The notes below the pieces were generated by a model. The model did no database searches, was not told the origin of the DNA, and saw only the letters and a program-made list of their open reading frames with translations. A stretch of 64,000 bases of DNA from Bacilli bacterium (lineage in GTDB: Bacteria > Bacillota_I > Bacilli_A > RF39 > UBA660). This document shows, in pieces, positions 36,993-59,174 of the stretch. The stretch is from positions 12,107 through 76,106 of the forward strand of contig JAFRIU010000047.1 of NCBI GenBank assembly GCA_017432645.1, read 5' to 3'. Made by a program: the position numbers and the translations under genes. How positions within the stretch are numbered: the first letter of the stretch is position 1; each line of letters begins with the position of its first letter.

Positions 36993-37724
36993 TCAATATT
37001 TCACGTCCAACAAGCACAATCCCTCTGGGGGTGCTGTCTTACCAGATTTCGTCCGATCTTTACTCTCTAAAATTTCAGATATCTTTTCTGGTAATATCTT
37101 GCCTTCTCCTACTCGAATTAAGATCCCAACCATATTTCTTACCTGATATCTTAAAAATCCATCTCCAGAAAATAGAAATCGAATCTTTTGATCCTTTTCC
37201 TCTATCAAAGCCTTAGTAATCGTTCGAATACAATTATCTTTCTCTTTGTTATCTGTTACAAAAGCTCGAAAATCATGAGTCCCCAAAAAGAAAGAAATAG
37301 CTTCTTTCATCTTTTCAATGTCTAAAGAATGATTATATTGAAAAACAGTATTTCTTTCCAAAGGATTATATTCTCCCATATTAAGCAAATATTCATATGT
37401 CTTTTCTTTTACCTGATATCTAGCATGAAAAGAATCCTCTACCATTTTAGTTTCAATAACATGAATATCATCCGGTAAATGACTATTTAAAGCTCTCTTT
37501 AACTTTGCTTCTGTAATATTTACCTGCAAATCAGCATGAGCATACTGACATAAAGCATGAACTCCCTTATCTGTCCTTCCTGTTGCAACAGCAATAGTTC
37601 TCTGATGATTATTAACCTCAGTCAAAGCATTTTCTAATCTTTCTTGAATAGTATCTTTTCCCCTTTGTGTTTGAAATCCAGAGTAAGAAGTACCATCATA
37701 AGAAAATTGGATTAAAAATCTCAT
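36993..37724 (-). CDS. truA: tRNA pseudouridine(38-40) synthase TruA
   Basis: GRTDKGVHA catalytic Asp motif. Confidence 0.85.
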   Translation of the reverse strand: MRFLIQFSYDGTSYSGFQTQRGKDTIQERLENALTEVNNHQRTIAVATGRTDKGVHALCQYAHADLQVNITEAKLKRALNSHLPDDIHVIETKMVEDSFHARYQVKEKTYEYLLNMGEYNPLERNTVFQYNHSLDIEKMKEAISFFLGTHDFRAFVTDNKEKDNCIRTITKALIEEKDQKIRFLFSGDGFLRYQVRNMVGILIRVGEGKILPEKISEILESKDRTKSGKTAPPEGLCLLDVKY

Positions 37725-37732
37725 ATTTCCTC

Positions 37733-38509
37733 CTATACATGTTTATAAATATCTTTCATAAGATCTCTTAAATCTCTATGATAATCAATATTCATACCTT
37801 TTTTTCTAAGCAAGTCTGTTAGTTCAACAATTTCTGGTAAAAGGATCTTATTTTTCTTTAAAAAATCCACTTGTTGATAAACCTCCTTAGTCTCTCCCTC
37901 TAATAAAATACCATTTTTTTCAACAATTAAATAATCAGTATATTGGTATAACAAATCTGGTTGATTACTAACAAATAAAATCGTCTTATCATAAAGATCT
38001 TTCATCTTCTGAATCAAAGAGAAAATTCTTTTCTTCGTTTTTCTATCAAATCCTTCTAAAGGATTGATCATAATAATCATTTCTGGATTAAACATTAAAA
38101 CAGAACCAAACTGAATCAGCTTTCTCTCAGAAGAAGACAAATCCTGAATATCACGATTTAAATAAGTAACATCCAATCCCACTACTTTTAAGGTGTCCAT
38201 TACTTTCTTCCTAGGATCTTTTAAAGAAACTCTGTTAGTCCTCATTCTTTGATACAAGTACTCATATACCTTATATCGAAAACAAATAGAATCCATCTCT
38301 TGAGATACCAATCCTATTTTCTGCTTATATTGTCTCATCTCATCACGATTTAATTTCTTTCCATCAAGAGTCATTTCCGTCTCTAAAATGTCTTTTAAAG
38401 AAATCCCATCCACAAGTTCTTCATAATGACTTCCAGTAATTCCATTCACAGCTTTCTCTTGAATAGAAAAAGAGAAAGTCTTATTTTTCGTTTTTATCTT
38501 TACTTCCAT
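37733..38509 (-). CDS. EcfA2-like ABC ATPase homolog with degenerate catalytic motifs
   Basis: ABC fold is alignable to EcfA2. Walker A is missing (GITGSHYEEL), the signature is LSSSE, Walker B is MINPLEG, and the H-loop His is replaced. Confidence 0.55.
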   Translation of the reverse strand: MEVKIKTKNKTFSFSIQEKAVNGITGSHYEELVDGISLKDILETEMTLDGKKLNRDEMRQYKQKIGLVSQEMDSICFRYKVYEYLYQRMRTNRVSLKDPRKKVMDTLKVVGLDVTYLNRDIQDLSSSERKLIQFGSVLMFNPEMIIMINPLEGFDRKTKKRIFSLIQKMKDLYDKTILFVSNQPDLLYQYTDYLIVEKNGILLEGETKEVYQQVDFLKKNKILLPEIVELTDLLRKKGMNIDYHRDLRDLMKDIYKHV

Positions 38510-39270
38510 AAGGCATCCACCATTCTATTCTTATCTAATTCAATACTATCTAAAAGCTTATAATCTTTTAGTTTTACAGATAAATCTATCATAAAAGGCA
38601 AATCTAAACCAATCTTATTAATCTTGGCATCATTTTCTAATACTTCTAACGGAAATCCTTCCAAAGAAATCTTTTTCTCATCCATAATATATAAATAATC
38701 AGTGTATAAACTTTCTTCTAAAACTTGTGTCGTATAAAGAATCGTATTTTCTTCCTTCTTCTGATATTTCTTTAAAAAAGAAAGAATCTTATATAACTCA
38801 TTTTTTTCAAAATAAGAAGAAATATCATCAATCAATAATATCTTTAAAGATTTAACTAGCTCGACAGCAAGCTGACATAAAACAAACTCAAAAGAAGATA
38901 AACGAGAAATATCTTTATGACGAATAGATTTCAAAGAAAGACCTCTCAAGATCCAATCTATTCGCTTAGAATCATTCGTATATAGATATAACTCATCCTC
39001 TAAGCAATTCTCTTCAAATTCCTTTTCTAAAGGAATCACACAACCTACAAGCATAGAATAAGAAGAAATAGAATAGGTATTGATTCTTTCTCCTTCTATT
39101 TCAATGTCACCATCTACAATAACCTCTCTACTTAAAATTCTAATTAATGTTGTCTTACCACAGTTATTTGGACCTGAAAAGGTTACAAACTGATCTTTTG
39201 GAATCAACAACGAAAAATTATCAAATAAATTTTGATAATAGAAATGGCTAATTTTAATAGCATCATTCAT
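38500..39270 (-). CDS. EcfA1-like ABC ATPase homolog with degenerate signature, Walker B and H-loop
   Basis: Walker A is intact (GPNNCGKTT). The signature is LSSFEF, Walker B is LLIDDISS with no catalytic Glu, and the H-loop His is replaced by Gln. C-terminal GLDLP helix. Confidence 0.55.
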   Translation of the reverse strand: MNDAIKISHFYYQNLFDNFSLLIPKDQFVTFSGPNNCGKTTLIRILSREVIVDGDIEIEGERINTYSISSYSMLVGCVIPLEKEFEENCLEDELYLYTNDSKRIDWILRGLSLKSIRHKDISRLSSFEFVLCQLAVELVKSLKILLIDDISSYFEKNELYKILSFLKKYQKKEENTILYTTQVLEESLYTDYLYIMDEKKISLEGFPLEVLENDAKINKIGLDLPFMIDLSVKLKDYKLLDSIELDKNRMVDALWK

Positions 39271-39304
39271 TTTACCTCTTCCCCCATTTGAAATGAAAAG
39301 CCAA

Positions 39305-40063
39305 CTATTTGCTGGCTTTTTTCTTTTGAATTCGATATGTCATCTTTAATAATGTTTCATCAGATAAAAATCTTTCAAAAAATTTTACAAGCTTCATTTT
39401 TGTTCCTGGAATAATTAACATCTTATTCCGAAACATCTGGTCAATAGCATACTTTGCTACAAAAACACTAGATAGTGGTTTCACAGAAAAATGAACTCCA
39501 GCTACCTCATTAAAATTCGTCTCTACTGGTCCAGGACACAAAACAGAAACATGAACTTTAGTCTTCTTTACTTTTTCCTCATAATATAAGGCTTCTGTTA
39601 ATTGATATACATAAGACTTTGTAGCATAATAAGTACTCATTAATGGTCCTGGTTGAAAAGCAGCAGAAGAAGAAACATTCAAAATATAAGTATCGGTATC
39701 TCTCTTCTCCATATCTTTCGCAACATATTTTGTAAGAATATGCAAAGCCTTAATATTCGTATTAATCATTTCTAAATCTTTGTTTATATCCGTATCTGTT
39801 AAGTAGCCAAAATCTCCAAAACCAGCATTATTAATCAAAATATCTACATTTTCTTTCTTAGCAAGTACATATAATTCTTTTACTTTTTGCTCATTCGATA
39901 AATCCGCAACGATAATCGTTACTTTTGTTGGTAATTGTTCCTGAATCTGTTCTAGTTTCTCTTTGTTTCTAGAAACTAAAACAAGCTCACATTTTTGACT
40001 AGCAAGATATCTGGCCATATCTAAGCCAATTCCTGAAGATGCTCCAGTAATTAATGCTTTCAT
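39305..40063 (-). CDS. SDR family NAD(P)-dependent oxidoreductase
   Basis: TGASSGIG Rossmann motif and a Y...K active-site context. Confidence 0.8.
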   Translation of the reverse strand: MKALITGASSGIGLDMARYLASQKCELVLVSRNKEKLEQIQEQLPTKVTIIVADLSNEQKVKELYVLAKKENVDILINNAGFGDFGYLTDTDINKDLEMINTNIKALHILTKYVAKDMEKRDTDTYILNVSSSAAFQPGPLMSTYYATKSYVYQLTEALYYEEKVKKTKVHVSVLCPGPVETNFNEVAGVHFSVKPLSSVFVAKYAIDQMFRNKMLIIPGTKMKLVKFFERFLSDETLLKMTYRIQKKKASK

Positions 40064-40148: not shown

Positions 40149-40610
40149 TTACTGTGTTTCCTTTTCCTTTTTTTCTTTTTTTGCAGGTTTTGCAGGCTTC
40201 TTTTCAGCCTTTTCAGTCTTAGCTTTTTTCTCTTTCTTTTCTGGTTTTTCTTCTTCTTTTTTTGGAGATTCTACTAATCTTAAAATAACCATTAATGCAT
40301 CGTCTCCACGTCTCTCTGTTAATTTTAAGATCTGAGTATATCCACCATTACGATTTTCATATCTTTTAGCTAAATCACTAAATACTTTTTCAACAGTTGC
40401 AACATCATTGTGTAAAAAAGCTAATGCTCTACGACGAGAAGTTAAATCGCCCTTTTTACCATAAGTAATCATCTTCTCTACTGTCTTACGAACTTCTTTC
40501 GCTCTTGTTTCAGTAGTAGTAATACTTTCATGATTAATTACTTGTTTCGTCATAGTAGCTAGCATACTTCTTCTATGCTTATTATCTACACCTAATTTTC
40601 TATATGCCAT
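40149..40610 (-). CDS. rplQ: 50S ribosomal protein L17 with Lys/Glu-rich C-terminal extension
   Basis: L17 core followed by a ~37-aa [13 protein letters not shown]... tail. Confidence 0.9.
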
Positions 40611-58305: not shown

Positions 58306-59076
58306 TCAATTAGTAATCAGGGGCTTAGAAAACTCTAATCGAAGCTTATCTGCTATCGTAACAATAAATTCTGAATTAGTAGGCTTTGCCTTATCAATAT
58401 CTACACTATGTCCAAATATTTCTTCCATCAAATCCCAATTTCCTCTATTCCAACTCACTTCAATAGCATGACGAATAGCTCGTTCTACTCTTGATACTGT
58501 AGAATCATACTTTTTAGCGATTTCTGGATATAACTCTTTTGTGATACCACCAATCATATCAGGTCTCATATAAACCAAAGTAATTCCCTCTCGAATATAC
58601 TGATAACCCTTAATATGGGAAGGAACACCTAATTCATGCAAAGTCTTAGTAATAGATATTTGTAAATTATTATGAAAGATATCAATAACCTCTCCTTTAT
58701 GAACCTCACTTAAACTTCGAATTTTATCTTCTAGATCAGCTAATTCAAAAGGCTTTAATATAAAATAACTAGCCCCTAAAGAAGCAACCTTTCGAATCGT
58801 ATCTTGAGTATTATAAGAAGTTACCACGATTACCTTCTTATCTACTCTATTTTGATACAAATGCTCTAAAACATGTAGACCATCCTTATTTGGCATAACC
58901 AAATCCAACAAAATAACATCATAATCATCCTTCTTTTGATCAACAAAGAGAAGTCCTTCTTTACCATCTTTGGCTTCCAACACAACATCAATATCTGGAA
59001 TTTCTTTGAAATACTCCTTAATCATATCAATCAAACTCTGATTATCATCAATGACAAATAATCTTGTCTTTTCCAT
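58306..59076 (-). CDS. spo0A: sporulation master regulator Spo0A
   Basis: N-terminal receiver domain (DD...D, VMPNKDG). The C-terminal Spo0A-specific domain carries [19 protein letters not shown] and [31 protein letters not shown] precedes the start. Confidence 0.8.
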
Positions 59077-59174
59077 TTTTCTCCTCCTATCATTTACCAC
59101 GCATTATCATTATATAATAGATAAAATAAAATGGAAAGAAAAAAAATGGACAATTTTTGTCGACTGTCCATCTC

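Follow-up and report, generated by a model that had tools for sequence, protein, structure and literature searches.

A degenerate EcfA1/EcfA2-derived ATPase pair without EcfT at the ancestral ecf position in a family of uncultured Bacilli

Energy-coupling factor (ECF) modules are regarded as obligatory ATP-hydrolysing motors of vitamin uptake in Firmicutes and as antibiotic targets. Among heterodimeric ATP-binding cassette (ABC) proteins, TAP1/2 and CFTR are further cases with degenerate nucleotide-binding sites. Here we describe a locus in a 64-kb stretch of contig JAFRIU010000047.1, which belongs to a metagenome-assembled genome (MAG) labelled 'Bacilli bacterium'; the whole stretch is referred to as the window. 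Two adjacent genes derived from the ECF ATPases EcfA1 and EcfA2, which we call ABC1 and ABC2, lie there at the ancestral position of the ecf operon, and the gene for the membrane component EcfT (the T component) is missing. We think that the locus is probably a stepwise dismantled ECF module whose ABC1-ABC2 pair was kept as an ATP-binding, non-motor pseudo-ATPase.

The closest described proteins are EcfA1 and EcfA2 of the group II ECF transporters (L. delbrueckii ECF-FolT2, 5JSZ and 8BMS; L. brevis, 4HUQ). The window pair resembles them in its best-matching models, in its full-length fold including the C-terminal helices, in its operon slot after rpoA-rplQ and before truA, in an acidic residue of the groove that receives the EcfT coupling helix, and in a 10-nt gene overlap that is also found in near-canonical relatives. 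It is unlike them in that its scores are 3-4 times below the curated cut-offs, the catalytic Glu, the H-loop His and the LSGGQ signature are absent from both proteins, ABC2 lacks a P-loop, the Q-helix motif has gone and there is no adjacent EcfT gene.

A second point of reference is given by the degenerate sites of heterodimeric ABC exporters such as TM287/288. In an ABC dimer each ATP is sandwiched by two subunits, one contributing its Walker A and the other its signature and D-loop (PMC3971661). Degenerate sites are frequent in ABC exporters; a Glu to Asp replacement in their Walker B blocks hydrolysis, and the bound nucleotide holds the nucleotide-binding domains (NBDs) together (PMC3971661). 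The window pair shows the same features, i.e. a Walker A and a Walker B Asp, a following residue other than Glu, no His, and a non-consensus signature in the partner. However, one consensus catalytic site and the membrane domains are always retained in exporters of the TM287/288 type, whereas the window pair has lost the second site and the locus encodes no membrane partner. The combination of one degenerate and one consensus site is absent from the window and present in a relative, L112, described below.

Two further cases are related by lineage or by the kind of loss. In the plant and cyanobacterial protein ABCI11 (NAP14) the Gln of the Q-helix is replaced, from which its authors infer that proper docking on a T component does not occur (PMC6828968). 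The window pair is likewise an ECF-type ATPase relative without the Q-helix, but ABCI11 keeps the standard ATPase motifs (PMC6828968) while the window pair is a doubly degenerate heterodimer from another lineage and another context. In an Alicyclobacillaceae species ecfA1A2T is fully deleted (PMC8046335). There too the ancestral operon of a Bacilli lineage lost its ECF function, but all three genes were deleted, whereas the window lost ecfT alone and retained the ATPase genes under selection. In the papers that we searched, neither degenerate nor doubly degenerate ECF ATPase pairs are described, nor is an NBD pair in which both sites are inactivated.

Family assignment and motif states of ABC1 and ABC2

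ABC1 (38500..39270, minus strand, 256 aa) and ABC2 (37733..38509, minus strand, 258 aa) are both members of the Pfam family ABC_tran (PF00005; 51.8 and 29.4 bits, respectively, at a cut-off of 25). The best NCBIfam model of ABC1 is ECF_ATPase_1 (TIGR04520) with 82.5 bits, that of ABC2 is ECF_ATPase_2 (TIGR04521) with 103.6 bits, and both values fall short of the equivalog cut-offs (315 and 330). With these two models the near-canonical relative L109 reaches 230.8 and 255.4 bits. Sequence searches of the PDB with either protein gave EcfA1/EcfA2 chains among the matches. An AlphaFold2 (AF2) model of ABC2, which was built from a 5-sequence alignment with a mean confidence (pLDDT) of 62 and served fold assignment, not site geometry, had the ECF ATPases 4mki, 7nnt, 8bmr and 4huq as its top PDB folds (E ~1e-11, full length). 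The Foldseek alignments to EcfA chains cover 278-290 columns, and the C-terminal helical extension of the group II ECF ATPases is present; the NCBIfam match of ABC1 runs through to the model's end. The position, the fold and the best models make it clear that ABC1 and ABC2 derive from the ECF ATPase family; on curated score, catalytic motifs, Q-helix and adjacent T component they fail the tests of a functional ECF ATPase.

The motifs were called from alignments to L. delbrueckii EcfA1, and a census of the family was made on 66 distinct ABC1 and 76 distinct ABC2 sequences. From the complete catalytic set, i.e. Walker A, Q-loop Gln, LSGGQ, Walker B Asp-Glu and H-loop His, ABC1 retains just the Walker A and the Walker B Asp. 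The Walker A or P-loop (GPNNCGKTT, aa 33-41, 39148..39174; this and all features of the pair given below are on the minus strand) is intact, conforms to xxxxGKT in all 66 sequences and is the second most conserved 15-aa stretch of the protein. The former Q-loop and Q-helix (39016..39039) read VIPLEKEF for the canonical VFQNPDNQF: the Q-loop Gln is replaced by Pro, as in 54 of the 66 sequences, and the Q-helix motif is lost, with a Gln at its position in none. The signature is a degenerate LSSFEF for LSGGQ (38884..38901), at a column that is hypervariable in the family (more than 40 variants). In the Walker B and D-loop region (ILLIDDISSYFE, 38806..38841) ILLIDD stands in place of hhhhDE; the Asp is retained (66 out of 66), the catalytic Glu has become Asp, and the D-loop is lost. 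Across the family the Walker B Asp is followed by D, N, S or Q, and rarely by E. The H-loop position (LYTTQV, 38722..38739) has Gln for His, i.e. TTQ for THD, and no member of the family has a His in the canonical column.

Two other parts of ABC1 are well conserved. The acidic groove residue, E93 (38989..39006), is Glu in 62 of the 66 sequences; it is the equivalent of D105 of L. delbrueckii EcfA1, which contacts an Arg of the EcfT coupling helix (PMC6828968). The C-terminal helices (GLDLPFMIDLSVKLKDYKLL, 38551..38610), which form the dimerisation region of group II ECF ATPases, contain the most conserved 15-aa stretch of ABC1 (LPFMIDLSVKLKDY, mean top-residue frequency 0.89), and they are also found in the near-canonical relatives L109 and L111 and in L112.

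In ABC2 the Walker A reads GITGSHYE in place of GxxGxGKT. The former P-loop (NGITGSHYEE, 38417..38446) thereby has His-Tyr-Glu where relatives with GITGxGK[ST] have Gly-Lys-Thr, and in the census a P-loop is confined to a minority subclade. The Walker B reads MIIMIN followed by PLEGFD (MIIMINPLEGFD for hhhhDEPTxxLD, 38045..38080), i.e. Asp is replaced by Ile and Glu by Asn, and the Asp of the D-loop is kept. This D-loop Asp is found in every D-loop variant of the census, whereas the Walker B varies. At the H-loop position (FVSNQP, 37958..37975) there is Asn for His (VSNQ for THD). The signature is modified to LSSSERK (canonical LSGGQ, 38120..38140); LSxSE is found in about 90% of the sequences and its last Glu in all 76. 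The Q-loop Gln is present (VSQ), but its column varies across the family, and the Q-helix position reads EMDSIC in place of the X-P-D/E-X-Q-phi motif. ABC2 thus retains from the catalytic set the modified signature and the D-loop Asp, plus the Gln of the variable Q-loop column. The acidic groove residue, E83 (38255..38272), stands in a column offset by one; it is invariant in an 11-sequence alignment and is Glu or Asp in 69 of the 76 sequences. The C-terminal helices (LLPEIVELTDLL) and tail (IDYHRDLRDLMKDIYKHV; both within 37736..37843) include the most conserved stretch of ABC2 (YHRDLRDLMKDIYKH, 0.91). We considered whether this invariant tail is a novelty of the degenerate pair and rejected the idea, since near-canonical EcfA2 relatives carry ..DLIKDIYR.. 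at this place.

The motif of the Q-helix lies directly after the Q-loop and has been described as essential for transport and for contact with the T component (PMC6828968). It is lost in both proteins, i.e. neither the 66 ABC1 nor the 76 ABC2 sequences have a conserved Pro or Gln at the respective columns.

The conserved catalytic elements all fall into one composite site, because ATP sits between a Walker A and the signature and D-loop of the opposite subunit. This single site would be made up of the P-loop, the Walker B Asp and the A-loop Tyr of ABC1 together with the LSxSE and the D-loop Asp of ABC2. At the second composite site (Walker A, Walker B and H-loop of ABC2, signature of ABC1) each element is lost or free to vary.

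A first-pass annotation of this DNA had read both ORFs as EcfA1/EcfA2-derived, with the C-terminal helices GLDLPF.. and LLPEIVEL, and this is borne out by the coordinates, the best Pfam and NCBIfam models and the PDB matches. The alignments likewise agree with its account of ABC2 (no P-loop, LSSSE, Walker B replaced) and of ABC1 (LSSFE, no catalytic Glu, Gln for His, Walker A kept); the replacement of the ABC1 Q-loop Gln by Pro has to be added to the latter list. Its description of the pair as catalytically dead is right as far as the motifs go, but judged by the same motifs ABC1 is probably not fully dead and would keep one ATP-binding, non-hydrolytic site.

Distribution, selection and the stepwise loss of the ECF module

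ABC1/ABC2 pairs with matching motif states were found in another 16 contigs from MAGs and metagenomes (L001-L011, L024-L028) as well as in 80 more metagenome loci, which gives about 100 independent loci in total. The latter were fetched (L029-L108) from at least 199 metagenome stretches with the arrangement. The order rplQ-SDR-ABC1-ABC2-truA-rplM-rpsI, where SDR is a short-chain dehydrogenase/reductase gene, is present in species representatives of GTDB that stem from rumen, mouse and other guts (L003-L011) and carry labels as varied as Erysipelotrichaceae, Tenericutes, Clostridiales and Bacilli, as well as in ENA contigs (L001, L002, L024-L028) and in human-gut contigs of up to 580 kb. Identical ABC proteins occur on up to 6 independent contigs, and independent assemblies with these motif states number in the dozens and come from rumen and from human, mouse and sloth gut. 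Annotation pipelines name the members of this family just 'ABC transporter ATP-binding protein' or 'ATP-binding cassette domain-containing protein' (in NCBI, for the 'Bacilli bacterium' MAG).

Both genes are under purifying selection. The ratio of nonsynonymous to synonymous substitution rates (dN/dS) was calculated by the method of Nei and Gojobori (NG86) for the window versus L024-L028, which are 91-93% identical to it, with dS of 0.44-0.68 for the ABC genes. The values were 0.07-0.095 for ABC1 and 0.05-0.076 for ABC2, as compared to 0.093 for truA and 0.08 for SDR; versus L001 (77% identity) the ABC genes gave about 0.14. There are no frameshifts or premature stops in the pair across the ca. 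100 loci, down to ~30% identity. In other words, the marks of a pseudogene, a disrupted frame or an omega near 1, are absent. The identity to the window, given as highest and lowest values, is 94% and 77% for rpoA, 85% and 58% for truA, 93% and 64% for SDR, 78% and 29% for ABC1 and 76% and 34% for ABC2. We also note that dS is uneven along the operon (window 37733-40063 versus L024-L028), namely 0.23 for SDR, 0.41-0.43 for truA and the 0.44-0.68 mentioned for ABC1/ABC2, which could come from recombination or from differences in codon usage.

No T component (CbiQ/EcfT, PF02361) is encoded with the ATPases. No ORF lies between ABC2 and truA (36993..37724, minus strand; TIGR00071, 216.5 bits, above the cut-off), the downstream gene of the ancestral ecf operon, and the spacer between the two is 8 nt long (TAG gaggaaat ATG, 37725..37732), which therefore leaves no room for ecfT. 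The Shine-Dalgarno-like GGAGGA upstream of truA overlaps the stop codon of ABC2. None of the non-ribosomal ORFs of the window gave a Pfam match to CbiQ/EcfT, an S-component or a further ABC ATPase, hidden Markov models (HMMs) built from related EcfT and T-like proteins had no match in its six-frame translation, and the ~10 kb past each window edge, read on related contigs, contained no ECF components. When canonical ecfA was sought in all fetched loci of the family (~873 kb), just the ABC1/ABC2 pairs scored, with at most 76 bits. According to PMC8046335 the ancestral ecf operon follows rpoA-rplQ and precedes truA; ABC1-ABC2 occupy this position, ecfT being the one exception. The gene order and the HMM and Pfam scans thus sustain the initial reading of an ancestral ecf position that lacks ecfT. 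It had also placed truA 9 nt after ABC2; truA does follow directly, but 9 is the position of the ATG and the spacer has 8 nt.

The loss was not a single event but the last stage of a stepwise series that can be seen in relatives. A search for truA homologues was of no use for finding them, as its best 120 matches were all at least 72% identical and included no outgroups; the outgroups came from a search of a representative library and from cluster and contig look-ups. A profile search of 1.84 billion representatives gave 124 proteins at E <= 1e-30. The top ~70 have LSxSE and the KDIYKHV tail in common and lack the P-loop. Next below are EcfA2-like proteins with the tail ..DLIKDIYR.., an intact Walker A, the Q-helix VFQNPEEQF, a Walker B with Glu and mostly an H-loop; one of their clusters is annotated as 'Clostridium sp. 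CAG:1193', the others as Bacilli or Lactobacillales MAGs.

Four states can be distinguished. In L111 and L109 both ABC1 and ABC2 are near canonical and the T component is a Pfam CbiQ gene of 247-251 aa. In L112, ABC1 has Lys for the catalytic Glu, Asn for His and Pro for the Q-loop Gln, with LSGGE kept; ABC2 has a canonical Walker A, Walker B and His, and EcfT is full (245 aa). In L113 and loci of the L008 type the ABC1 signature and the Q-helices are lost, ABC2 keeps the P-loop and DEP, and in some cases (e.g. L113, L008) the His, and the ecfT slot contains a T-like ORF of 183-217 aa. In the clade of the window the ABC1 signature and the ABC2 P-loop are lost and there is no T component. The L112 locus (L112:5219-7537, a rumen Bacilli MAG), whose ABC2 is canonical apart from LSNSE, would, judged by its motifs, amount to an ECF module in which one site is degenerate and the other consensus and EcfT is of full length. 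In a neighbour-joining (NJ) tree built on two proteins (SDR and truA), without support values, the T-less and P-loop-less state of the window forms one large clade, within which truA falls to ~63-67% identity to the window. L009 and L010 make up a second, independent T-less lineage; L007 is T-less but P-loop-positive.

The T-like ORF was found in the ecfT slot of L008 (10731-11384), L062 (10788-11393), L094 (2812-3363), L099 (10743-11321) and L113 (2797-3408). It is an 8-helix membrane ORF, and its presence accompanies the retention of the ABC2 P-loop in the sister subclade. It has no CbiQ match in Pfam, phmmer and profile searches of the PDB returned nothing relevant, and a database search gave 16 family members, none of them with a Pfam domain. 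As sequence-level methods gave no match to EcfT, homology was argued via the intermediate L113, the alignment of a motif, hhalign and Foldseek. An HMM of the T-like family matches the L113 ORF (E 1e-10) and, in the L111 EcfT, the C-terminal coupling-helix region (E 2e-3), where AMEVRLF is aligned with EFEKRLFF; the T-like ORF bears an E-x-R-L-F motif. With hhalign the family and EcfT give a colinear alignment (P 0.011-0.016), and the N-terminal NPYFTITQFILLF resembles, when read by eye, NPFYKIICTLIF of L109. In the AF2 model (pLDDT 76) a terminal transmembrane helix comes after two long helices, and the model's sole Foldseek match in the PDB with a probability above 0.5 is CbiQ (5x3x_Q, E 0.76, TM 0.47/0.43). 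Operon slot, HMM, hhalign, motif and fold, taken together, make it quite likely that the T-like ORF is a reduced EcfT.

Gene junctions and neighbourhood

ABC1 and ABC2 are co-translated through a 10-nt dual-coding overlap (ATGGAAGTAA, 38500..38509, minus strand), in which the end of ABC1 (..W K stop) is read as ..TTA TGG AAG TAA and the start of ABC2 (M E V) as ATG GAA GTA. The identical overlap is present in L001-L010, in most of L029-L108, in the near-canonical L109 and L111, and in L112. The invariant C-terminus of ABC1 (..LWK) and the invariant N-terminus of ABC2 (ME(V/I)) share this one stretch, so that the constraint of dual coding explains at least part of their invariance.

On the minus strand the genes follow each other in the order secY-adk-infA-rpsM-rpsK-rpoA-rplQ-SDR-ABC1-ABC2-truA-rplM-rpsI. 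The upstream landmark is rplQ (40149..40610, minus strand), the final gene of the alpha operon, an ORF that is matched by Ribosomal_L17 in the syntenic loci. Between it and ABC1 lies the SDR oxidoreductase (39305..40063, minus strand; adh_short, 137 bits), a generic classical SDR with TGxxxGIG and YxxxK and, judged by these motifs, apparently active. Its best NCBIfam match, mycolate reductase, is below the threshold. The same gene stands between rplQ and ecfA1 in relatives with a Pfam-recognisable EcfT; it therefore predates the degeneration and is no evidence of a new partnership. A link between SDR insertion and degeneration was accordingly rejected: the gene does lie after rplQ, as the first-pass annotation had it, but it does not belong to the degeneration.

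Across an order-level group SDR is a fixed gene between rplQ and ecfA1, and it is conserved above truA (64-93% versus 58-85%). The rplQ-SDR-ecfA interval is also a hotspot of insertions. It contains an 869-aa pilin-like Ig-repeat protein in L008 (5622-8231), a Fic protein (L010:3943-4641) and other ORFs between SDR and ABC1 in L010, and MurT/GatD-like genes in L111 (1882-3863). A scan of the window for promoters and terminators was uninformative and gave 25 promoter-like sites versus 28 expected, with a TG-extended -10 candidate in the rplQ/SDR gap (40114-40086).

Some other genes of the window are worth recording. Two neighbouring HTH_3 proteins with C-terminal transmembrane segments lie immediately 3' of rpsI (34434-35801, minus strand); one of them also has a Cys-rich, zinc-ribbon-like tail, and both are kept in the close relatives L025 and L027. 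An FHA and FtsK/SpoIIIE protein of 1525 aa, EssC-like (26403-30980, minus strand), is followed by three small ORFs (25701-26391), which suggests a type VII secretion locus. An Abi_2 (abortive-infection-like) gene is found beside an HtrA-type protease both in the window (22557-23528, minus strand) and downstream of the ecf operon of L112 (L112:11787-12713), i.e. the two share this neighbourhood although their ECF states differ. Finally, a Spo0A homologue (Response_reg and Spo0A_C; 58306-59100, minus strand) adjoins tpiA and pgk. The organism therefore descends from spore-forming Firmicutes and is no mollicute, despite a GC content of ~30% and the 'Tenericutes' labels of some related MAGs.

Proposed role, rival explanations and significance

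The series suggests the following course of events. EcfA1 would first have lost its catalytic Glu, His and Gln with EcfA2 and EcfT still canonical, which would have left one degenerate site. The EcfA1 signature would then have been lost, both Q-helices would have decayed and EcfT would have shrunk to ~200 aa. In the clade of the window, a third step would have removed the T gene and, from EcfA2, the P-loop, the Walker B Asp and the His. ABC1 and ABC2 probably heterodimerise via their conserved C-terminal helices, and the retained site would bind ATP-Mg without the residues needed for hydrolysis. The pair may thus serve as an ATP-dependent clamp, scaffold or sensor, in which case transport would not be powered by hydrolysis, and it may dock, via the groove acids, on an Arg-bearing helical partner encoded off this locus. 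More specifically, and only tentatively, we suggest that the heterodimer is a soluble ATP-sensing pseudo-ABC protein in a non-transport role, i.e. a nucleotide-dependent regulator or an assembly factor with a new Arg-bearing partner.

Several points weigh against the view of a dismantled module kept as a non-motor pseudo-ATPase. ATP binding, heterodimerisation and the absence of hydrolysis are predictions from motifs, and the conserved groove acids could mean that the pair still serves a membrane complex. A T component, canonical or reduced, S-components or a second ECF module may sit elsewhere in the genome, as the searches covered ~84 kb around the locus. At long distance, sequence evolution in the ABC pair is 2-3 times faster than in its neighbours (29-36% identity versus 58-64% for truA), and its constraint, compared with that of a housekeeping enzyme, is therefore relaxed. 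Confidence in the AF2 model of ABC2 is low (pLDDT 62), the NJ tree has no support values and uses two proteins, and the EcfT ancestry of the T-like ORF, although probable, is built from statistics that are weak individually.

The first of the rival explanations is that the pair is still an ECF energiser, which docks on EcfT or a T-like protein and on S-components encoded elsewhere and is driven at the remaining site by the binding and release of ATP or by hydrolysis at a very low rate. We regard this as unlikely. It is true that the groove acid that would bind the coupling-helix Arg is kept in both proteins at the frequencies given above, that the ABC1 P-loop and the signature-like motif of ABC2 are conserved, that the sister subclade retains a reduced T-like membrane protein, and that the search covered the window and ~10 kb flanks. 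Nevertheless, the Q-helix motif that PMC6828968 calls essential is lost in both proteins, the catalytic Glu and the H-loop His are gone from both, and neither the 64-kb window nor the ~10 kb on either side contains a gene for EcfT, a T-like protein or an S-component. Moreover, the loss of the T gene coincides with that of the ABC2 P-loop, which looks like a release from transport and not like a relocation of the T gene.

A new non-transport module, in which the pseudo-ATPase works with SDR, TruA or ribosomal proteins as an ATP-sensing regulator or assembly factor, seems doubtful to us. The adjacency SDR-ABC1-ABC2-truA is invariant in ~100 loci, with short or overlapping junctions, and SDR is better conserved than truA. 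However, relatives with a normal ECF module have the same adjacency, i.e. it is inherited operon structure, and in L010 and L035 SDR and ABC1 are separated by insertions.

The possibility that the genes are decaying remnants, whose ORFs survive only owing to a recent loss or to a need of the operon for the spacing, was one of two alternatives offered by the first-pass annotation, and we consider it very improbable. The catalytic motifs are indeed lost, the pair diverges faster than its neighbours at long distance, and a complete deletion of ecfA1A2T is on record for another Bacilli lineage (PMC8046335). But decay is rejected because the ORFs are intact in ~100 loci, with not one frameshift or stop down to ~30% identity, and because dN/dS is 0.05-0.15, far from 1; at 91-93% identity it is 0.05-0.095, which is similar to truA. 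In addition, particular residues are 95-100% conserved and the state persists through a large radiation. The comparison of dN/dS with orthologs that the annotation had called for thus revealed purifying selection, and the selection data leave its other alternative, a pseudoenzyme, as the surviving reading, with the role itself being what we infer. An artefact of sequencing, assembly or reading frame that hides canonical motifs, or a misread register, is conceivable a priori in any MAG but has a negligible probability here, since the alignments agree, identical proteins stand on up to 6 independent contigs, the motif states recur in dozens of independent gut assemblies and no other frame carries canonical motifs.

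The lineage of ABC1-ABC2 is of interest in several respects. It supplies an ECF module with one degenerate site (the L112 type), a T-like protein of ~200 aa and a selected, T-less, doubly degenerate AA' pair, and it draws attention to a family that annotation pipelines label generically. Should the pair still serve transport, the need for hydrolysis and for the Q-helix would be challenged. If it has a new function, it would be a clean bacterial case of the evolution of a pseudoenzyme from an ABC motor; and if its role is a non-transport one, the relatives, with a canonical module, one degenerate site, a reduced EcfT or no EcfT, would be a preserved stepwise record of the path from motor to pseudoenzyme. 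The finding also bears on the way in which abundant, uncultured gut bacteria with reduced genomes acquire their vitamins.

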